IMG/VR virus record: IMGVR_UViG_3300048606_000101
Coordinates: 1 to 39,983 of that record
DNA from: a virus
Lineage: Duplodnaviria; Caudoviricetes
Length of the DNA stretch: 39,983 bases
Reading direction: 5' to 3' (one strand)
Within the stretch, counting starts at the first letter, position 1, and each line of letters opens with the position of its first letter. A program made the position numbers and the translations under genes. A model generated the notes under the pieces. It searched no databases. It had not been told where the DNA came from and was given only the letters and a program-made list of their open reading frames with translations. Shown here one piece after another: positions 9,269 to 36,363 of the stretch.

Positions 9269-12200
9269 TCAGATTCCCCACTGGTCTTCCGCGACCATCG
9301 GCGCGGCGCCGCCGGTCTTTCCAGCCGTCATGTAAGCGCCAATGGTCGACCCAGCGGCGAGAATGTCGCCCGTCGTCGAGCGGTTTTGGTTGAACTGGTT
9401 CTGCTGTGCCTGGATGTTCGCATTCGTCTGGTTGTTGAAGACGCCCGCGTTGGTCGCGTTCGTAGAGAGCACGGCGTTCTGGTTGTTGTACTGATTCTGC
9501 GCCGCACGGTCGGCGTTCGCCTGCGCCACGCCAATCTGCTGCGTCTGCGCGTTTTGGTACATGTTGAGATACGAGTTCGTGGCCTGGTCGTTCAAGGCGC
9601 GCTGCTGCTGAGAGAGCGTCGCCTGCTGCGCCGCCTGCTGCGCGGAGAGGGACGTGTTGTATTGGTTCTGGCCCACGCTCGCGTTCAAGGCGTTCAAGTT
9701 CTGCTGGGCGCCAAACTGCGCATTGAACTGCCCTTGCTGCGCGGCCATCTGCTGCGCCGTCGCGTTCTGTGCAATGTTGCCCTGGTAGGCGGTCTGATTC
9801 TGCTGCGCGGCGAGGTTCGCTCCAAACTGCCCCTGGTTGATCTGCCCCTGGTAGGCCGTCTGGTTTTGCTGGGCAGCGAGGCTCGCGTTGTACTGCCCTT
9901 GCTGCATCGCCCCCTGGTACGCGGCGAGGTTCGCTTGCTGATTGAGGTTGGCGCCGAATTGGTTCTGGCCAATCTGCATGTTGCTCGTGTTCAAGGCCTG
10001 CTGCTCGTTGAAGTCGGCGTTGAATTGGCCTTGCTGCGCCGCGAGCTGCGCCCCCGAGAGGTTCTGCGTCGCCGCGAGGTTCGCGTTGAACTGCCCCTGC
10101 TGCGTCTGGCTCGCGAGCTGCGCGGCGTTTTGCTGCGCCTGGAGACCGGCCCCGAATTGCGCCTGCTGGATGCCGCCCTGGTACTGGGTCTGATTCTGCT
10201 GCATCTGGCCCTGGTATTGGGCCATGTTCTGCTGCGCTGTGAGGCCAGCGTTGTACTGCGATTGGTTCATGTACGCAGCGAGTGAGGCCTGCTGCTGCTG
10301 TTGCTGAAGCTGCGCGTTGAACTGCCCCGCCTGCTGCTGCCCCTGGTATTGGGCAAGGTTTTGCTGATTCGCCATGTTCGCGGCGAATTGGCCTTGGTTG
10401 ATATCGCCCTGGTACCCGGTGGCCGCCTGCTGCTGCGCCAAGCCGGCATTGTATTGCTGCTGCTGGACGAGCGATTGCTGATTGGCCTGCGCTTCGGTCG
10501 AGGTGAGCCCCATGCGAAACTGCTGCTGCTGCGCCTGGAGCTGCGCATCATTCAGGTTCTGCGCCGAGTAGAAGTCTGCGCCGCTCTTGTTTTGCTGAGC
10601 CTGCAAGCCAGCGTTGTACTGCTGTTGTTGCGCCTGAAACTGGGCGAGGCTCTGATTCTGCGAAGCGTCAAGGCTCGCTCCGAATTGCCCCTGGCCAATC
10701 TGCATCTCGGCCGCGGCTTTCGCCTGGTCTATGGCCGACGACGTGGAGAATTGAGCGTTCGACGTGTCCGCTGATTGCTGCGTGCCGACCAGCTGGCCGA
10801 GGAGCCCCTGCGCCTGCATCTGCTCTTGAGCCCGGAGCATCGCCGTACTCCGCAAGTTGTCCTGCTGCTGCGCCGAATTCTGCCGAAGCGCCTCGATCGC
10901 CGATAGCGCACCGGTGCCGCCCCTCGTGCTGTTCGCGATTGCGAGGTTCGACCGTAGGGCCTTCTCCTGACCCTCCTGCATCTGGAGCGCGGCGAGGCTC
11001 GGCCCCCCTCGGCCATAGGCGCGATCGCCCACGCTGCCGATGAGCTCCTGCATCTGCCCGCGCCCCTCCATGTACCGGGCGAGACCTTGCGAGCGCTCGT
11101 AGTCGACCTTGTCCATCCCGACCTGGTCGGGGGCTTTCACGCGGTCCATCCCGACCACGCCGGGCGCGTCCACGTAATCGTAGCTCTGCTGTTTCAGGCG
11201 GACGTCGTTCTCCGCTCTCGTGCCTGGCAGGCCGAGTAGCCCCGGGCCTTGCACCTGGTCTAGCTGCACCCTGTCCGGGGCACCCTCGCGCTGGAGCGCC
11301 ACGTCTTTCGGGTTGGCCACCGTGCCGAGCTCTCGGATTGCGGGGCCCTGCGTGCGCTCGAGCTGCGCCATCTGCAAGGCGCGCTCCGCTGGCGACGCCA
11401 CCATGTTGAGGTTCTGCTGCGCGACCGGCCCGACCTTCTCAAGCCCCACGGTCTCCGGCGCGTTGAACTGCTGGAGCCCCACGTTCGGGCCAGCCGATGC
11501 GCGCGCGAGCTCCTCCTTCGCTACGGGGCCGACCCGGTCGAGGTTCACGTTGTCCGGTGCGTTGACCCGGTCGAGCGCTGCGCGGTCGAGCCCGACGGTG
11601 CCGGGGGCCGCAATCTTCTCGAGCTCCTGGACGGGGAGGCCAGTGACCTTGTCGAGCTGCACGCCCTCGCGGTTCTGCGCGCTCTGCGATTGCTGGCGAA
11701 AGTAGTCCTGCGCGGTGACCGGCTTGTCCGACGCCTGAACCGCGGCGTTCATCTGGTCGAGGTTGCCCTGCATGGCATTGCCCCAAGCCGCGTACGCATC
11801 GGCGAGCCCGGTGTCGCCAGCGGCGCGCAATTCGTCGGCCTGGCGCATCATGTCGAGCTGCTGTTGCTGGTACGCGTCGCGCTCCTGGACCAGCTTCGGG
11901 TCCTGCCCCGACGAGCCGAAGTTGCCTTGCGCTACCGACGGGTCGAGCATGCCGGTGCCGGGGTTGACGAATGGAGCCGTCGCCGTGCCGTAGGAGGCGC
12001 CGCCGGCCCCCGTGGGTTGCCCGGTGTAGCTCTCGCCTCCAGCGTTCTGGAGTTTCGAGTCAATGGCCTCCATCCCACCGTACACGGCTGCGCCAACGCC
12101 GGGGTTCAGGGTGATGATTCCGGCCGCGACGCCAGCGGCGAGCGACATCCCCGGGGGCAAGCTCATTTCGTTGCCGAAGCTGCTTCCCCACTGGTCGCGC

Positions 12201-12328
12201 TGATTCTGACCGAAGGTGGTGTTGTTGCCGGCAATCGTGATGCCACCAGTATCGTAGGGGTTGTAATCGGTCGGGCGCGCGCGGCACGCACGGCGAAGCC
12301 ATTCAGGTTGCTTGCGTAGCCGGATCAT
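9269..12328 (-). CDS. Gln/Asn-rich repeat ejection (pilot-like) protein, about 1019 aa
   Basis: Start ATG 12328 overlaps the nozzle stop; 22-aa repeats QQGQF(N/G)AxLAAQQN...; hydrophobic Gly-rich segments near both ends. Confidence 0.7.
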   Translation of the reverse strand: MIRLRKQPEWLRRACRARPTDYNPYDTGGITIAGNNTTFGQNQRDQWGSSFGNEMSLPPGMSLAAGVAAGIITLNPGVGAAVYGGMEAIDSKLQNAGGESYTGQPTGAGGASYGTATAPFVNPGTGMLDPSVAQGNFGSSGQDPKLVQERDAYQQQQLDMMRQADELRAAGDTGLADAYAAWGNAMQGNLDQMNAAVQASDKPVTAQDYFRQQSQSAQNREGVQLDKVTGLPVQELEKIAAPGTVGLDRAALDRVNAPDNVNLDRVGPVAKEELARASAGPNVGLQQFNAPETVGLEKVGPVAQQNLNMVASPAERALQMAQLERTQGPAIRELGTVANPKDVALQREGAPDRVQLDQVQGPGLLGLPGTRAENDVRLKQQSYDYVDAPGVVGMDRVKAPDQVGMDKVDYERSQGLARYMEGRGQMQELIGSVGDRAYGRGGPSLAALQMQEGQEKALRSNLAIANSTRGGTGALSAIEALRQNSAQQQDNLRSTAMLRAQEQMQAQGLLGQLVGTQQSADTSNAQFSTSSAIDQAKAAAEMQIGQGQFGASLDASQNQSLAQFQAQQQQYNAGLQAQQNKSGADFYSAQNLNDAQLQAQQQQFRMGLTSTEAQANQQSLVQQQQYNAGLAQQQAATGYQGDINQGQFAANMANQQNLAQYQGQQQAGQFNAQLQQQQQQASLAAYMNQSQYNAGLTAQQNMAQYQGQMQQNQTQYQGGIQQAQFGAGLQAQQNAAQLASQTQQGQFNANLAATQNLSGAQLAAQQGQFNADFNEQQALNTSNMQIGQNQFGANLNQQANLAAYQGAMQQGQYNASLAAQQNQTAYQGQINQGQFGANLAAQQNQTAYQGNIAQNATAQQMAAQQGQFNAQFGAQQNLNALNASVGQNQYNTSLSAQQAAQQATLSQQQRALNDQATNSYLNMYQNAQTQQIGVAQANADRAAQNQYNNQNAVLSTNATNAGVFNNQTNANIQAQQNQFNQNRSTTGDILAAGSTIGAYMTAGKTGGAAPMVAEDQWGI

Positions 12329-15300
12329 TTCTTCGCCTCCATCGCCATCGCTCGCGCGAACGCGCGTTCCTTCACGCCAAGCTCCATCGCGAGTCCAGAG
12401 AGCCAGCAACCTTCGCCCGTGTCAGGCCCCGGGCCTGACGTGTCCTCCGCGTCGCGCAGCTCCACCTCGTACGACTGCGCCTTCTGCCTATCGACGAGCA
12501 TCGTCAGTTGCTCGCGCGGCAAGGCGGCAATCTCCGCATTCGACCACGCGCGCTGGGACACGATCGCGTCGTCGTAGTTGTAGCGAATGTAGAACGTGAG
12601 CTCGTGGGCACTCTTGCGCTCCGCAAGTACCGAGAGTCGACGAAGACGTACGAAGCCCTGTAGGCCAGCCGGCTTCAGCATCATCCGGACGGCCATCGGC
12701 ACGAATGCGCCATTGTCGGTGAAGACGGTTCGACTTTCCGCGAAGAGCCGCCCATCGCTGTAACCAAAGTGCATGAGGTCCGCCGACTGGGCGCCGGCCC
12801 GCGGCGCGCCCATACCCAGCAGCTCCGTTGTCCACGCCCCAAACGGCGCTTCCTGCGACTTGCGCTCGTAGTTGAGCCGCAAAATCTGATGAGTCTCAGA
12901 CACGCCGCCGACGGGGCTCGACATGCCGAAGCGGATCTCGCTCGTCTCCGCTGAAGCCCCGGCAAAGAAGCATTCGGCGTAATTGTCCGTCCAGTAGTCG
13001 ACATCGCCGCCTACAAGGATCACCTCGAGGCCGCGCGTCAGAAGCTCGATGCCGCGCTGGCTCAGGAAGTAGACCCCATCCTTGGCAACGACGACGCTGC
13101 GCGGGTCGACGCACCCGACCGGGCTCGAGAGCCGCTGCGCCGTGAAGCCGCCGCCGGAGCCATTGTCGTCGAGCGGCGTTCCCACGAGCATGTGGATCTC
13201 GTGCTCGGTGAAGATGATGCACTTGTCGTCCATCGACGCGCCCATCACCGGCATCTCTCGACTCGAGAGGCGGTACGTGAGCGCCGCGCTAAAGGCGAAG
13301 CCTTCCCCGACGACGAGAGGCTTACTCTGCCAGAGTGAGCCGTCTTCGCTGTTGTTCACGATGAGAACGTCGTTGTGGGAGACCACGAATGAGCATGGCG
13401 GCGCCGGGAAGTTGCCGAGCGCGCCGCCGCTCGTGTAGAGCGTCTCGTTCACCGTGACGGACGCGTCCGCGAGGGTGTCGATGAGTGACGCCGTTGGGGC
13501 CGCTTGCGGGTTATTCGACGTGCCTCCGACCAAATAGAACGGCCCGGATGAGCCCGCCGCGGTGCGCCAGAATTCAATTCTGACATTGCCAGCGCCGCCG
13601 CCTCCCGAAACCCGCGTGAATTGCAGCATCGGCACGGTCAAGCTGACGCGGTTGGTATTGGTCCCAGCCGGCACAGTGACCGTAATGGGCAGCGACGGGT
13701 TGCTTCTCCAAACGCGGCCTCGCGCGTCGTCGTACCGATAGGTGGCGACGTATTGGTAGATGCCCGGCGCGATGAAGCCAAGGGTCGCGAGGGGGGCGCC
13801 GGTGGTCGGCGTCTCTGGGAACTTCAGGAAACCGAGCTCAAAGACGGCTTCTCCGTCAAACACGCAAGGCGTGCCGCCTGCGATGGCCAGAAGCCGCCCG
13901 TGCTCCGTCGTCCGAAACCGCTTGGTCGACGTCATGTCCACTTCCACGTAGTCGACGCCAAGGTTGGCGTTCGCGTAGGCGAAGGTCCCGCCGCCGGATA
14001 GGTTTACCTTGGTTTTGATGGTCTGCGCGAAGATGAACGTCCCCTCGGCCGTGGTCACCACGCCTGAGACGGTGTCGCCGGGCGTCGTCGTCGGCAGAGC
14101 TCCAGAGACGAGCGGGGCCAAGCTCAGGCTAGAGATGCTCGATGTCGCCTGAAACGTGACGTCAATGAGGAAGGTGCCGCCCTGGATCGCGGACGGTGAC
14201 CCGACCGCAATGAAGCTGCTGCCGTCGACTTCGAAGAAGCCCGACTCGATGTGGTGCGCCACGTAGAACATCTCGGCCCCAGAGAGGGCGCCGGCCGTGG
14301 TGATCGCGCGGAACCGGCAATCTGTGCCGTTGTCCCAACCGAGCAGCACGCTCGTCGCCGTGCGCGCCCCCAATTGCAGGGTGAACGTCTGCGCCGACGC
14401 GGCGCTGACGGTGAACGGCGCGACGACGAGCGACATCGACGAGTCGTACGCAGCCGCCCTGACGTCGCCGCCCGCGCGCTGCCAAGCGACCCAAAGCAGG
14501 CTCCCGATGTAGCGGCATGCGACGGGGCCAGCGACCGTCTCCGCAATGACCGCCGACGCCACGGACACGCCCGTCAGGCTCCGCTTGGAAACGAAGATGC
14601 TAGTCCCCCGCGAGTAGGCGAGAAACCACTGCGTCGCGGAGAACGGTGAGACCCCGATGGCGCCCGTTGCGAAGTCGTAGTCTGTCGCTTGTGGACCGCC
14701 GTTAGGGTTAGTGTTCAGGTTGTTCGGCGCATTGCAGTCGAGTCGGTTGATGTTGATGTTTGCCGAATTGTCCGACGGCATCACGATGAAAATGTACTGC
14801 CCAACCGTTAGCGCCCGGAACCGTTGCACGTTAGTAGCGATGGAGTCGTGCCAGCGCCTTGTGCCGGTGCGCAGGTCGGTGACCGAGCCGACGAGCCTGG
14901 GCGAGGTGGGCGCGGGAGCAGTGAGAATGTAGATCCCCACGAGAATGCCGCTTGCGCTCTCGTAAGCGACGTCTGCGCGAGAGATTCCTGCTGTATCGGC
15001 ACTTCTGCCAACCGAGCCCCGGCCCACTTCCAGTGCGACGGGGGAGCGCCCCCTTTCGATCCACACGAGATCGTCACCCGCGGCCGTGCGCGCGTACGTG
15101 TGGGACTTGCAGAACGCGACCAGCCCGCCCTCGTAGGTAGCAAGCCCGTCGCACCGGTCGAACGTGAGGCCGCCGCGAGGGTTGGTCGTGGCCAGCGACA
15201 CGTACCCCTTGCGCTTGCGGATGACGCCCTCGGTGTCGAGCACCACGTTTTGGGCCCACGTGAGCGAGGGGGCTTCCACGGCGCGCTTGTCCGCTCGCGT

Positions 15301-28948: not shown

Positions 28949-29794
28949 CTAGTCATGGCAAATGCAATCCCCGAGGTCGTCGATCTCGTCTGCCTCGACC
29001 ATCGGCAGAAGCGGCTGACCTCGCACTCGGCGCACCATCGCGGCGTAGCTGACCGCGTCGGCCCGGAACCTGGCTGGCCTACCTGACGAATCGGTGAGCC
29101 GGTTTTCCTGCTCAATCCACCACGTGGCCAACGACTCGTCGTCGCGGATGATTCGTTCCTTCTTGTCTCTGCCCTTCAGGAAGCAGAGGTCACAATTGCC
29201 CTCCCAAGGCATGAGGCGAAGGTCAAACGGCTGCTCGCTCCAGAACGCGGCAACGTCGGCTAGGAGAATGCCCGCCTCGGCCAGTGGCAACGCCACCTCG
29301 TACCGATTCGCCCCGGTCTCGTTCGCGCGGCCCATCTTGGCGACTCGGCGCGGCTCGTCGGCTCGGATGCCGACGACATTGGTCCAGTGGTCGAAGCCGT
29401 GCGTCATCGCCCACTTTTGCATCACGCGGATCTTGAGCTCCTGCGTGCAGAACCTAGTGACCGGATTGGGTAGGTAGGACCTCGCCTCGATGAGCGCCGC
29501 GAATGGCTCCCCGGCTCGGCTGGCGGCCTCGTGCGTGACCTCTGCGTACGTGTGAGCGAGGCCGTCGTCCTTCGGCTCCGCCCGGTATTCCAGCCAATGG
29601 ATCGGGACGCCCCACCGTGTCTCCACCGCGTGGATGAATTCGAGCGTCTCCGGCCGCTCTTTGCCGGTGTTGGCGAAGAGCACGTGAACGTCAGCGCGAA
29701 TGCCCTCGTCGAGAATCCGACGCAGCATGTAACCGCTGGTGCGGCCGCCGCTGAATGAGATGGTGGCCGGGCCATCGATCGCAAACGGGCTCAC
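28949..29794 (-). CDS. PAPS reductase family / NinC-like protein
   Basis: PP-loop ISFSGGRTSGYM, FANTGKE..ETLEF, RFCTQELK, GIRADE..R, GNCDLCFLK, C-terminal CICHD. Confidence 0.85.
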   Translation of the reverse strand: MSPFAIDGPATISFSGGRTSGYMLRRILDEGIRADVHVLFANTGKERPETLEFIHAVETRWGVPIHWLEYRAEPKDDGLAHTYAEVTHEAASRAGEPFAALIEARSYLPNPVTRFCTQELKIRVMQKWAMTHGFDHWTNVVGIRADEPRRVAKMGRANETGANRYEVALPLAEAGILLADVAAFWSEQPFDLRLMPWEGNCDLCFLKGRDKKERIIRDDESLATWWIEQENRLTDSSGRPARFRADAVSYAAMVRRVRGQPLLPMVEADEIDDLGDCICHD

Positions 29795-29964
29795 CACACG
29801 TCCCTCTCGTCCTCGTCCCACCTGGACGACTCGAGCGGGATGCCGAATCCATTGGCCTCCGATGCCTTGCCGATGGCGTAGAGGAAGGCCTTGCTGCCGA
29901 AGAAGCCGGCCCACACGAGCATGTCGGCCACGAAGACCCAGAAGCCGAGGCGGTGGGGGCTCAT
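29791..29964 (-). CDS. Small membrane protein
   Basis: MSPHRLGFWVFVADMLVWAGFF...; coupled. Confidence 0.5.
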   Translation of the reverse strand: MSPHRLGFWVFVADMLVWAGFFGSKAFLYAIGKASEANGFGIPLESSRWDEDERDVW

Positions 29965-30146
29965 CGGGCACCTTTCCGGTTGCGCTCGTAGAGCGCGATG
30001 AGCCGCTGACTCTGCGGGGAGCGACGCGGCGAAGCGTCGGCGGCGGCCCTGAACCAGTCGCGCGAGCATCGAGCGTCGGAGCAGAATCGCCCCATGTGCT
30101 TCAGCCTGACGCCGCACTGCTCGCAATGGCCTGGCAGGAGCCTCAT
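29961..30146 (-). CDS. Small Zn-finger-like protein
   Basis: CEQCG...RFCSDARC. Confidence 0.55.
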   Translation of the reverse strand: MRLLPGHCEQCGVRLKHMGRFCSDARCSRDWFRAAADASPRRSPQSQRLIALYERNRKGAR

Positions 30147-30880: not shown

Positions 30881-31951
30881 CTATGTGGAGCGTCGTCCCG
30901 CTGGCCCCCGCCGGGCCGGCTTGTCGAGCTCCCTCACTGCATCAATCTTCACATCGGGGGAAAGGTGCGCGTAGCGCATGGTCATCCGAATGTCGGAGTG
31001 GCCGAGGAGCTCCTGCACCGTCTTGATGGGAACGCATCGCATGACCAGGTGCGACGCGAACGTGTGCCGCAGAACGTGCCAGCCGACGCGCCTGAGCCCG
31101 GCCCGCTTACACGCCGACCAGAGCGGTCGCTTGCATCCGCCGCGGGTGAGCTCGACGCCGGCGGGCCCGCGGAACAGTCGCTCGCTCGGCTCTGCCCCGA
31201 CCACGCGGAGCTCGCGCAGCGCCGCGCGCGCCCGATTATTGAGGGGTATCTCCCGCGGCTTGTGACTCTTCGGCGTGGTCACCTTCCCACGCACGATCGA
31301 CTGCCGCACCATGACCTTGTCGGCGAAGACGTCGGAGTGCCTCAACCCGAGGAGCTCGCCGACGCGCATGCCCGTGTTGAGAGCGACGACGATCATCTCC
31401 GACCATGCCCCGGCGTGCTGAGCGAGGCGCTCCGCTTCGGCGAAGCCGAAGAAGTCGAACCGCTGCTCGGGGAGCTTCAAGAGCTTGACCTTCGGGACGA
31501 AGCTCGTGCGCTTCCACTCGACGGCGATACGCAGCATCTTGCCGAGCACGGCCAGGTGGTTGTTGACCGTCTTTTCCGATAAGCCCAGCTTGCGCTTCGC
31601 AGCCTTGTACGCCTCGATGTCTTCGTCCCCAAGCTCATCGAGGCGGAGCTCAGAGAACCAAGGGGAAAGGTGCTGGTTCAGGATCTGTTCCTTCGATTCG
31701 AATTCGGACGGCTTGTTGTTGGCGCGCGCGTACGTCTCAAGAAAGTCAGTCGCGAACTCCCCGAACATTGGAGCCTTTGCAGAAGGGTTGGCGCGCGACT
31801 CGAGCTCGCGGCGGAGTTTGCGCTCCATCTCCATCGCCTCACCCTTGTTGCGAGCCCCCTTCGCGGCGCGCTTGATTCGCACCGTGTTTTTGCCGCGCCT
31901 GATGACGATGTCGATTCGCCAGCCGCCGTCCTTGCGCTTGAGAACGCTCAC
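30881..31951 (-). CDS. int: Tyrosine integrase
   Basis: TGMRVGE (R), TPKS (K), HVLRHTFAS (HxxR), LLGH, MRYAH (Y); N-terminal arm-binding beta domain. Confidence 0.95.
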   Translation of the reverse strand: MSVLKRKDGGWRIDIVIRRGKNTVRIKRAAKGARNKGEAMEMERKLRRELESRANPSAKAPMFGEFATDFLETYARANNKPSEFESKEQILNQHLSPWFSELRLDELGDEDIEAYKAAKRKLGLSEKTVNNHLAVLGKMLRIAVEWKRTSFVPKVKLLKLPEQRFDFFGFAEAERLAQHAGAWSEMIVVALNTGMRVGELLGLRHSDVFADKVMVRQSIVRGKVTTPKSHKPREIPLNNRARAALRELRVVGAEPSERLFRGPAGVELTRGGCKRPLWSACKRAGLRRVGWHVLRHTFASHLVMRCVPIKTVQELLGHSDIRMTMRYAHLSPDVKIDAVRELDKPARRGPAGRRST

Positions 31952-32145
31952 TTCGGCGCCCCGCCAAGCGCCATCCACGCGAGCAGCGTGGGCTTGTGAA
32001 TGCGGATAGTGCCGCGAAACCAGCGGGCGCCAGGTAGCTGTTTCCTTTCGACCATCTCGTAGACTGTTTTGATGTTGAGACGGAGCAGCAACGCCGCTTC
32101 CTTCGCGGTGATGATCTCCGGCTCGAGCTGTTCGGCGGCCCCCAT
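31948..32145 (-). CDS. xis: Excisionase (HTH_17 / MerR-like)
   Basis: IITAKEAALLLRLNIKTVYEMVERKQLPG.R...TIRI; coupled to int. Confidence 0.85.
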   Translation of the reverse strand: MGAAEQLEPEIITAKEAALLLRLNIKTVYEMVERKQLPGARWFRGTIRIHKPTLLAWMALGGAPK

Positions 32146-32925: not shown

Positions 32926-32961
32926 ACAATAATGGCATCCAGCAACGTTGTCAAGCGCCAT
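32926..32961 (-). promoter_or_regulatory. Leftward early promoter/operator (copy 1 of 36-bp inverted repeat)
   Basis: TTGACA-N17-TATTGT on the minus strand; exact reverse complement of 33387-33422. Confidence 0.8.
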
Positions 32962-32985
32962 CGTTTGCGACCTTGAGTCGAGCCA

Positions 32986-32999
32986 AATTCGATCGAATT
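32986..32999. promoter_or_regulatory. Palindromic operator candidate AATTCGATCGAATT
   Basis: Perfect 14-bp AT-rich palindrome just upstream of the repressor ATG. Confidence 0.45.
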
Positions 33000-33021
33000 C
33001 TTGGCGAGCGGGGGGCCGCCG

Positions 33022-33336
33022 ATGCGCACGTTTGACCAGGAACTACGCCAAGCGATTGCGGCAGCCGGGTTTGACCTGAAGGGGGCAGGGCCGGCGACCG
33101 TCGGAAACGAGGGCAGAACGATGGCGGCGCTCGCGAAGAAGGCGAACGTCGAACCGACCTTTATTTCCCGCCTAAAAGACGGCAAGAAACCGCAGGTAGT
33201 GGAACAGGTCGCCGCGGTCGCGCGGCTCGCCGCGGCGTTGGGGACAACGGTCGAAAGGCTCGCCGCCGGCATCAACGCGGCCTACGAAGCCCCGGACAGC
33301 CAGGTAAGGCCGAGTAGTAAGCCTCACACCAAGTAA
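33022..33336 (+). CDS. CI-like XRE repressor (no peptidase domain)
   Basis: TMAALAKKANVEPTFISRLKDGK...VARLAAALGTTVERL; 104 aa. Confidence 0.8.
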   Translation: MRTFDQELRQAIAAAGFDLKGAGPATVGNEGRTMAALAKKANVEPTFISRLKDGKKPQVVEQVAAVARLAAALGTTVERLAAGINAAYEAPDSQVRPSSKPHTK

Positions 33337-33386
33337 GCGATCGGTCTTGAGCCGGGCCGAATCGCCGCGCATCACAATCGACAATC

Positions 33387-33422
33387 ATGGCGCTTGACAA
33401 CGTTGCTGGATGCCATTATTGT
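33387..33422 (+). promoter_or_regulatory. Rightward early promoter/operator (copy 2 of 36-bp inverted repeat)
   Basis: TTGACA(33394)-N17-TATTGT(33417-33422); ATG at 33430. Confidence 0.8.
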
Positions 33423-34540: not shown

Positions 34541-34885
34541 GTGATGGACTTCGCGAAGTACAACGGGACGGGCAAGCCGCGGATGATGCCGTCGACCGTG
34601 GAGCAGGACGAGGAAGCCGCGAAGCGCCGCAATCTCATCTGGGAGGCGCAGGACCTTCAGCGCGTAGCGTGGTCACTCGGTGGCAACTCAGCCGTCGACC
34701 ACGTGGAGGCCGATCTGCTCGAGGCGATTCGCCTCTACGAGCTCGCGAAGACCGTCTGGGAGCGGCTCGGGGACCGCGCGTACGAGGCCCGCTGCGCGCA
34801 ATACGCCATTGACGCCATCAGGCTCACCATCGCATCGAAGCGCGCGAGCGACGCGATTGCCGCTGCCACGGGGAGAGACCAATGA
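34541..34885 (+). CDS. Hypothetical helical protein
   Basis: 114 aa, coupled to the exonuclease gene. Confidence 0.6.
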   Translation: MMDFAKYNGTGKPRMMPSTVEQDEEAAKRRNLIWEAQDLQRVAWSLGGNSAVDHVEADLLEAIRLYELAKTVWERLGDRAYEARCAQYAIDAIRLTIASKRASDAIAAATGRDQ

Positions 34886-36363
34886 GAATCCTGCTCATCG
34901 ATATTAGCTCACTTTTCCGGCCAATTTGGGAGATGTCGGGGCAGGAGGCCGACCAGGACCACGCGTCGCGCGCGACCGTTGGCGCCGTGCACGCGATGGC
35001 GCAGAACTTCGACCACGTCGCCGTCTGTTGCGATAGCCGCAAGAGCTGGCGCAGGGAGATGGCTCCCACGTACAAGGCAAATCGCCCCCCGTCGCAAGAG
35101 CCGATGCTGCATCAGCTCCGCCTCGCGCAAGAGCAGCTCGCGAAGGACGGCTTCCCCGTCTGGCAGGTCGAGGGGATGGAAGCCGACGACATCATCGCGA
35201 GCGCCGTCGAGCAGGCCGAGAAGATTCAGACGCACCTGAACGTTACGATTGCCTCTTCGGATAAAGACTTGACCCAGCTCGTAAAGCCAGGCGTCTCGGT
35301 GAAGTCGCTACGCACAGGCGACGTCATGGGCCCAGCCGAGGTGAAGGCGAAGTTCGGCGTCCTTCCCGAGCAGATGAAGGACTGGCTTTGCCTCGTCGGC
35401 GACTCGTCGGACAACATTAAGGGGGTCCCGGGCGTCGGCCCAAAGCGAGCCACGGACCTGCTTGTGACGCACGGAACGTTGTTCGACTTGTACGGCAAAC
35501 TTGGTGAGAGCTGCACCGTGCTCGGTCTGACGCCGTCGGTGTTCTCTGCCCTGAAAGAGAACGTTCAGGCCGTCGAGCTCGCGCGCAAGCTCATCACGCT
35601 GCGCACAGACGTGGAGCTGCCCTTCGAAGAGATATTCAAGCCGCGAGCACCGCAAAACGCTGAAGAACTTGCACAGGAGGAAGACGACATGGGCGACGAA
35701 ACGGTAACGGAAGACGGGGAAGTGGTTGCAACGCCTGAAGTGAAGAGCGAGAGCGTGAAGGTCGAACCGCCGCCGGCTACGCCCGCCTCCAACGTCGTCC
35801 AGATGCGCCCAGCCGACGAGCCGAAGGCCCAGTCCGCGGCGCTCGCCACGGTCGAATGGGAGGCGGAGCTCGAGCCGCGGTCCCCGTCGCAAGTCGTCAC
35901 CTACGCGAACAAGCTTTTCAACGCTCGCCTATTCGACGGATACGGGACGCCGGAGGGGGTCATGACGACAATCCTGCTCGGCCGCGAGCTCGGCATCGGC
36001 ATGATGGGAAGCCTCCGCGGGATTCACCTGATGGACGTGCGCGGCAAAAAGAAGCACGCCCTTTCGGCCGACCTGATGGCCGCGCTCGTGCTCCAGAGCG
36101 GCAAAGCCAAGTTCTTCGAGCCGGTCGAGCTCACGCCAACGTCGGCGACTTACCGCACGCATCGCGTCGGGGCGGAGAAGCCGTTCACGATGACGTTCAA
36201 CATCTCCGAAGCGAAGCAAGCGGGGCTCATCAAGCCAGGCGGCGGATGGGAGATGTGGCCGCTCGACATGTGCAAAGCGCGCTGCGTAGCCAGGCTCGCG
36301 CGCACGATCTATCCGGACGTCTGCTTCGGGCTGTACGTCTCGGAGGAATTGGAGGCAGCATGA
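34882..36363 (+). CDS. 5'-3' exonuclease (PolI N-terminal/FEN family) fused to a RecT-like ssDNA annealing protein
   Basis: N-terminal: LLIDIS, VCCDS..SWRRE..PTYKANR, EADDIIAS, SSDKDLTQL, LVGDSSDNIKGVPGVGPKRA. C-terminal: ILLGRELGIG.M.SLRGIH, FNISEAKQAGL, W..WP..M..AR..ARLAR..YPD...GLY..EE. Confidence 0.85.
   Translation: MRILLIDISSLFRPIWEMSGQEADQDHASRATVGAVHAMAQNFDHVAVCCDSRKSWRREMAPTYKANRPPSQEPMLHQLRLAQEQLAKDGFPVWQVEGMEADDIIASAVEQAEKIQTHLNVTIASSDKDLTQLVKPGVSVKSLRTGDVMGPAEVKAKFGVLPEQMKDWLCLVGDSSDNIKGVPGVGPKRATDLLVTHGTLFDLYGKLGESCTVLGLTPSVFSALKENVQAVELARKLITLRTDVELPFEEIFKPRAPQNAEELAQEEDDMGDETVTEDGEVVATPEVKSESVKVEPPPATPASNVVQMRPADEPKAQSAALATVEWEAELEPRSPSQVVTYANKLFNARLFDGYGTPEGVMTTILLGRELGIGMMGSLRGIHLMDVRGKKKHALSADLMAALVLQSGKAKFFEPVELTPTSATYRTHRVGAEKPFTMTFNISEAKQAGLIKPGGGWEMWPLDMCKARCVARLARTIYPDVCFGLYVSEELEAA

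Follow-up and report, generated by a model that had tools for sequence, protein, structure and literature searches.

Whether a single phage gene can supply both the nuclease and the annealase of a recombination system is the question raised by one open reading frame in the DNA studied here, which a sequence-only reading had interpreted as a FEN-type 5'-3' exonuclease fused to a RecT-like annealase. The window, meaning the whole stretch analysed, is a complete virus record of 39,983 bp with direct terminal repeats and a GC content of approximately 65%, and it is assigned to a temperate phage because the genome carries integrase, repressor-like, replication-initiator and major head genes. As listed in Table 1, the fusion gene lies in the early operon, beside the repressor and the integrase, and it overlaps the neighbouring gene at either end through an ATGA. 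In lambdoid phages, the recombination genes occupy a slot in the rightward early operon. A 45-nt inverted repeat (91%) has its arms at 32926-32970 and 33378-33422, each with an identical TTGACA-17-TATTGT and with the repressor-like gene between them, and the rightward operon that includes the fusion gene is likely driven by the promoter-like site in the second arm. The repeat and the repressor-like gene together resemble a compact lambdoid-style immunity switch (window 32926-33422). Elsewhere in the window, a PAPS-reductase-domain gene (28949-29971, minus strand; Pfam E 4.6e-7) adjoins the replication initiator and is possibly concerned with DNA modification, and an open frame of approximately 1000 aa among the virion genes (9269-12409, minus strand) contains long, imperfect Gln/Asn/Ala-rich repeats and gave no NCBIfam match.

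Table 1. Positions of the fusion gene, its parts and neighbouring features in the window.
Feature	Position	Strand	Basis
Fusion gene: FEN nuclease, linker and annealase, 493 aa (~54 kDa)	34882..36363	+	Single frame
FEN / PolI-N-type 5' nuclease domain, residues 1-250; D7, D51, E100, D102, D127, D129, D174, D177; arch Y64/K65/R68; H3TH	34882..35631	+	Pfam, Foldseek, conservation in 125 fusions
Acidic/Pro-rich linker, predicted disordered, residues 251-325	35632..35856	+	pLDDT <50 at 269-323; composition
Candidate internal RBS AGGAGG (35675-35680), 8-nt spacer, in-frame ATG 35689 (Met270)	35675..35691	+	Predicted
Red-beta/RecT-fold annealing domain, residues 326-493, without C-terminal domain; R474	35857..36360	+	Foldseek, PHROGs, profile, conservation
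Tyrosine integrase	30881..31978	-	Context: temperate phage
HTH repressor-like gene	33001..33336	+	Between two divergent promoter-like sites; context
Sigma70-like promoter TTGACA-17-TATTGT at 33394-33422, in arm of 45-nt inverted repeat	33378..33422	+	Function inferred

The frame proved to be uninterrupted over its 493 codons, with no stop in the linker. The ATG at 34882 is regarded as the right start because the catalytic D7 lies just after it and because of its SD energy of -8.1 kcal; the database copy of the protein begins at residue 18. An AlphaFold model of the whole fusion (mean pLDDT 85, pTM 0.55) contains two ordered domains with the disordered stretch between them. An assembly error or one-off read-through was rejected on account of the family of fusions and of contigs crossing both gene and linker: 0 differences were found in contigs of a possible source sample that cover the fusion gene, and the linker (35578-35915) is crossed without gaps, though with 26 substitutions, by a contig of a separate study.

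The fusion is real and widespread. Full-length homologues were recovered from IMG/VR, where 29 of the 39 loci in a first set were fused in one frame and 10 were unfused, and a second scan of 80 viral loci yielded 59 full fusions, 3 partial ones and 18 without exonuclease, 4 of the latter being cut by a contig end. When the C-terminal domain was used as query, both exonuclease Pfam domains were found in 38 of 39 proteins (lengths 271-863 only; one is the window's own protein). Among the best 150 of 31,317 profile matches, a full exonuclease is present in 95 and a partial one in 24, while 27 have none and a short tail, these being probably cut fragments, and another 4 lack the fusion and have a long tail. 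The architecture is common to three Atlas clusters (139, 66 and 59 members; 97-100% viral), with RecT flagged on 26-40% of members, and 125 full fusions have a median identity of 38% in pairwise comparison. In GenBank, none of 50,697 phage records reaches 80% coverage of the whole protein, and matches to the C-terminal domain, found in 217 phage and 8 plasmid records, are weak, the three inspected being unfused. A full-length query against 401 genomes of a Myxococcota-level sample, run without a positive control, gave 0 matches at E<=1e-45; among 401 genomes of the order around one Polyangiales genome, the annealase subfamily occurs in 14 and the fusion in 1. The family is apparently undescribed, perhaps because of its absence from the GenBank phage records. 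In agreement with the earlier impression that the architecture was uncharacterised, a natural FEN-annealase fusion was not found in the literature searched, although the supplements of SSAP surveys could list one (PMC8093625, PMC11611040, PMC12315714, PMC11783212, PMC12054835, bioRxiv 10.1101/598011, PMC2896510, PMC13454183 and PMC7824862 included).

With respect to the nuclease, PF02739 (E 2.7e-30, 105.7 bits against a cut-off of 34.3) and PF01367 (E 2e-20, 73.5 bits against 40) are both matched within residues 3-249, and Foldseek searches with the model retrieved ExoIX (E 3e-19, TM 0.88 by target), FenA, T5 FEN and PolI. These matches bear out the placement of residues ~1-250 in the PolI-N/T5-exonuclease family, and with it the claim of a nuclease family other than PD-(D/E)xK. 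The H3TH string GDSSDNIKGVPGVGPK corresponds to residues 173-188. Ten residues (E100, D102, D103, D127, D129, D174, D177, Y64, K65 and R68) are invariant in 125/125 fusions, D7 is present in 124 and D51 in 120, with Glu in the other 5, so that each of the eight metal-ligand carboxylates is kept in 120-125 of the 125. The ligands were mapped by motif and by Taq/PolI alignments against the FenA list in PMC5934675, according to which all eight carboxylates are required for flap and 5' exonuclease activity. The catalytic site is, to judge from this conservation, intact and looks functional. An ExoIX-type one-site FEN was rejected given D174/D177 in all 125 fusions, as was a split PolI of the phage, family-A polymerase having been found neither in 31 fused records nor in the window genome.

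The RecT-like domain claimed for the C-terminal part has likewise been substantiated. Its ~168 aa match RecT-like PHROGs (phrog_4171, E 2.7e-9); the Pfam RecT match (PF03837) is sub-threshold (E 0.038, 14 bits vs a cut-off of 24), a precomputed PF03837 match exists for 7 of 38 fused homologues, and the family profile finds lambda Red-beta by sequence (7UJL, E 0.0013). Modelled alone (pLDDT 95.6), the domain gave only two Foldseek matches at E<=0.001: 7UJL, which is lambda Red-beta (E 3.6e-5, TM 0.60), and 7UB2, the RecT of a Listeria phage (E 3.2e-4). An independent wide structure search (VIA) of 48,161 chains put 7UJL at the top (Z 9.3, rmsd 3.4, 137 residues aligned) and also matched 7UB2 (Z 7.4, rmsd 4.8, 139 aligned). 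Matches of VIA to dsRBD-like proteins (Z up to 7.6, 60-85 aligned) were set aside, since they span just the beta-beta-beta-alpha core. R474, invariant in 125/125 fusions, aligns with Red-beta R161, and the R161C change has been reported to abolish Red-beta activity (PMC2896510). Judged by fold and conservation, the annealase half looks functional.

Known annealing domains are N-terminal and followed by a partner-binding C-terminal region (PMC11783212), and the C-terminal tail of Red-beta binds Exo and host SSB (PMC11611040). The fusion differs from these annealases in architecture, not in fold: its annealing domain is C-terminal and tail-less, with a median of 2 aa and a maximum of 34 after the domain in 95 fusions, as against mostly 80-180 aa in unfused relatives. 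The loss of the tail would fit a covalent link standing in for the Exo contact. Red-beta without its C-terminal domain anneals yet does not recombine in vivo (PMC5052646), and the absence of this domain from the fusion therefore leaves its value as a recombineering tool in question. Four of the unfused relatives (L113, L116, L117 and L118), where exonuclease was not detected, lie in an operon that also encodes a MoxR-like AAA ATPase, a VWA protein and an IstB/DnaC-like loader.

The history of the two halves has been followed in trees. In a quick tree of RecT-like annealases, with contig-end fragments and duplicates left out, a branch with SH-aLRT 99 separates the fused domains (49 rows) from the unfused ones (26 rows). 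The FEN tree, also a quick one, without bootstrap and midpoint rooted, places a chosen subset of 43 fused nucleases (21 RecT-, 12 Rad52-like- and 10 Sak4-linked) in one clade apart from 19 other rows (SH-aLRT 99). Its nearest sampled outgroup is formed by Myxococcota PolI domains with moderate support (85-93). A GTDB pattern scan (2/64 parts) was dominated by PolI and supplied outgroups alone. Two viral loci within the fused clade that had counted as unfused turned out to be fusions to other annealases. One (L008:5932-8133, plus strand) joins a nuclease of the same clade to a Sak4-like AAA_24 domain of RecA fold (Pfam 2.6e-19, phrog_124 2.3e-19), and the other (L010:5989-7716, plus strand) joins it to a Rad52/Sak-like domain with a CxxC..H insert (2.8e-49 to phrog_3290, annotated 'single strand annealing protein'); the Atlas groups this domain with Rad52_Rad22 and SSAP_Sak. 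A profile search of PDB sequences with the Rad52-like domain (profile A5) gave no match, and this assignment therefore rests on PHROGs, weak Pfam matches (6/22, best E 0.024) and the Atlas. FEN was found fused in 11 of 21 Sak4-type matches (P0305-P0325) and in 46 of the 120 Rad52-like matches listed, of 645 (P0185-P0241). All 57 of these fusions retain the twelve catalytic and arch residues checked, and the Rad52-like ones are also tail-less (median 7 vs 172 aa). One locus (L280:1795-3522, plus strand) carries a RecT-type annealase on a nuclease of the Rad52-like tree branch, which points directly to modules having been exchanged at the linker. With regard to hosts, the name of one Sak4 fusion points to Sorangium sp. 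So ce131 and that of one Rad52-like fusion to a Thermomicrobiales MAG.

Partner labels change 6 times on the FEN tree, the minimum being 3, and as far as these trees and domain assignments indicate, the coupling of nuclease to annealase has outlived partner swaps among three annealase families. That annealases with two unrelated folds have been exchanged repeatedly is the strongest indication that selection has acted on nuclease plus annealing. It is probable that the fusion serves as an exonuclease-annealase recombinase encoded by one gene. At DNA ends, nicks or flaps its nuclease would degrade the 5' strand, while the 3' strand would be coated by the attached annealase and paired with a complementary sequence, the covalent linker taking the place of the Exo-Beta contact. 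A monomeric FEN threading 5' ends should leave the 3' tail intact, and might further cut back residual 5' flaps so that a ligatable nick results. By analogy, the fusion likely plays the role of lambda Red in RecA-independent repair, circularisation or concatemer formation and mosaic exchange during early lytic growth. Gene content has been compared in the same light. Whole-record searches for YqaJ, PDDEXK_1, DUF3799, phrog_434 and PolA each gave 0/31 in the fused records, 16 of which are at least 90% complete, and the complete window genome has no match to YqaJ, PDDEXK_1, phrog_434, SSB or PolA; tyrosine integrase occurs in 14 of 32 fused records, window genome included. As no lambda-Exo/RecE-type gene was found in the 31 records, the fusion appears to sit in the resection slot. 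YqaJ is present in 3 of 11 unfused records and was not detected in 8, one of which carries a gene annotated as a Cas4-family exonuclease at a distance of two genes. The resulting anti-correlation of exonuclease with fusion has the expected direction but is weak, the records being non-independent.

Certain points speak against the recombinase reading. Nothing visible in the fusion replaces SSB binding, with an SSB gene present in 7/31 fused records and none in the window genome. In addition, long-range resection is not assured, because in sequence the fused FEN comes closest, among solved structures, to ExoIX and the N-terminal domains of PolI (E ~1e-24; T5 FEN only 1e-8), and the PolI nuclease of B. 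subtilis is feeble and inactive on blunt ends (PMC10191290). An order of events in which annealing precedes trimming would accommodate this: the annealase would pair ssDNA supplied by host enzymes or replication gaps, and the FEN would act at the joint by clipping a 5' flap or primer, without resecting double-strand ends, as might be expected of an enzyme class known as structure-specific flap cutters (PMC5934675). This order is nonetheless judged unlikely, given that bacterial FENs that stand alone and have this set of sites act as 5' exonucleases on blunt and 3'-overhang DNA, the B. subtilis FEN digesting blunt DNA exonucleolytically (PMC10191290), and given the position of the fusion in the resection slot. 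A role as replication helper is more doubtful still and is held to be very improbable. The FEN would here remove Okazaki primers and the annealase would serve as an ssDNA anchor or fork-restart factor, recombination being incidental. Helicase, primase and SSB genes are indeed common neighbours of the family loci, phage FENs are usually interpreted as primer-removal enzymes (PMC7824862), and Sak and Sak4 are required for staphylococcal phage replication (PMC5499656). Against such a role, family-A polymerase is missing from all 31 fused records and from the window genome, and the partner has been swapped among the three annealase families, whereas neither SSB nor a polymerase occurs as partner of this FEN clade in the matches examined.

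The linker, which is 45-209 aa long in the family (median 85), has the acidic and Pro-rich composition first ascribed to it, with 17 D/E, 6 K/R and 9 P in the window protein. The description of the locus as a one-gene system holds for the single frame, but one gene may here encode two proteins, as an internal start at Met270, which is considered fairly likely, would yield extra nuclease-free annealase subunits of 224 aa and 24 kDa. The site has an SD energy of -10.3 kcal and weakly folded RNA around it. In the 125 proteins, Met makes up 6.5% of linker positions 10-19 vs ~1.3% further along, and it occurs at positions 9-25 in 79 of them, shuffles giving 40 with a maximum of 58. Internal-start statistics were obtained for 49 genes of <70% identity drawn from 95 fused frames, a strong site being defined as an ATG or GTG with an SD of -7 kcal or lower, at codons +8 to +30 after the nuclease. 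Such a site is present in 19 of these 49 diverse members, as compared with 7.4 when codon order is shuffled within the stretch (maximum 15; 0/300 as high) and with 2.6% of 831 core windows of the same size. An SD 4-mer at a spacer of 4-11 lies ahead of 46% of linker ATGs and 51% of true starts, and of 6% of ATGs in the core. In the Sak4 fusion L008, a comparable SD and ATG (-9.3) are located 21 codons upstream of the Sak4 domain.

It is also conceivable, with a somewhat lower probability, that the acidic run and its Met form a short peptide motif or a relic of a gene junction, and that only the full-length protein is made. E and D codons by themselves create GGAG, and synonymous recoding yields most of the SD signal (mean 14.6 vs 19 observed; 14/300 recodings as high; per-ATG Z 0.3); acidic codons also account for the low folding and high A content at the site. 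The linker Met is followed mainly by D/E, which sets it apart from true N-termini, and Phe shows a 5.4-fold enrichment nearby. A strong site is absent in 30 of the 49 members, and no clear site was seen in the Polyangiales copy L294 or in three Rad52-like loci. A D-x-x-T-G-E motif occurs in only 21 of 125 linkers. Other features of the same stretch argue for initiation. SD 4-mers at this spacing favour ATG/GTG over other hydrophobic codons of the same window (35/83 vs 25/143, p 8e-5) and GTG over other Val codons (9/26 vs 2/22), while a spacer of 0-3 is avoided before linker ATG/GTG (2/83). ATG and GTG exchange at the site among related phages, the partner codons in 38 close pairs being noisy (47/64 ATG, 2 GTG). 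SD-like codons are avoided in the rest of the gene (Z ~6), an avoidance absent before linker ATGs, and the signal is spread over several deep branches of one single-origin clade. If the internal start is used, short subunits beginning at Met270 might extend the filament, with few nucleases and many annealases, a step considered less certain than those above.

Taken together, these data permit the tentative proposal of a modular class of one gene and two proteins, in which a PolI-derived flap nuclease captured by temperate phages would serve as a universal resection and trimming module, joined in turn to RecT-like, Rad52-like and Sak4 annealases, with a linker RBS setting the ratio of nuclease-bearing to nuclease-free subunits and the Exo- and SSB-binding tail being dispensable. 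Such a protein would work like lambda Red (Exo and Beta) and Rac RecE/RecT, with which it shares the annealase fold (7UJL, 7UB2), the R161 equivalent, a 5'-3' nuclease partner and a temperate-phage early operon, yet it is not a member of these systems by architecture or nuclease family. They consist of separate exonuclease and annealase genes and employ a YqaJ/RecE-type PD-(D/E)xK ring exonuclease, in contrast to a single polypeptide with a FEN nuclease, a C-terminal annealing domain lacking the Exo/SSB-binding tail and a likely second start. The bacterial FENs (PolI N-terminal domain, M. smegmatis FenA, B. subtilis FEN YpcP, E. coli ExoIX and T5 D15) have the same fold, H3TH and full metal-site carboxylates, ExoIX lacking the last pair, but they are stand-alone or fused to a polymerase, whereas the phage FEN is fused to an annealase and forms its own phage clade. 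Sak (Rad52-like) and Sak4 (RecA-fold) are fused to this FEN clade in other phages and are not the partner in the window; the literature consulted describes them as encoded apart. In T7, the FEN-family exonuclease gp6 works with the annealer gp2.5 in phage recombination, a comparable pairing that differs in its separate genes, its OB-fold annealer and its lytic phage with its own polymerase. T7 gp4A/4B, a nested dual-start gene, resembles the fusion gene in having an in-frame internal start that gives long and short subunits of one oligomer, but it is a primase-helicase, and the start in the fusion gene is only predicted.

The fusion adds a nuclease family and an architecture to phage single-strand-annealing recombination, and annotation as '5'-3' exonuclease' hides the family. 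Its single polypeptide makes two questions testable, namely the handover from resection to annealing with its stoichiometry, and what the Red-beta tail is for. If recombination works without the SSB-binding tail, a 1.5-kb and possibly less host-restricted recombineering or DNA-assembly enzyme could result; native hosts are likely to be found among myxobacteria, where tools are scarce. Two other arrangements were observed among annealase matches. A protein of 455 aa (P0251), seen once, combines a YqaJ/RecE-like exonuclease with a Rad52-like annealase at the N-terminus, which is the classical pair in the opposite order. Six Rad52-like phage annealases (P0264, P0265, P0271, P0279, P0284 and P0287) have matches to PF13403/PF14890, which we take to be Hint/intein families, suggesting the presence of inteins.
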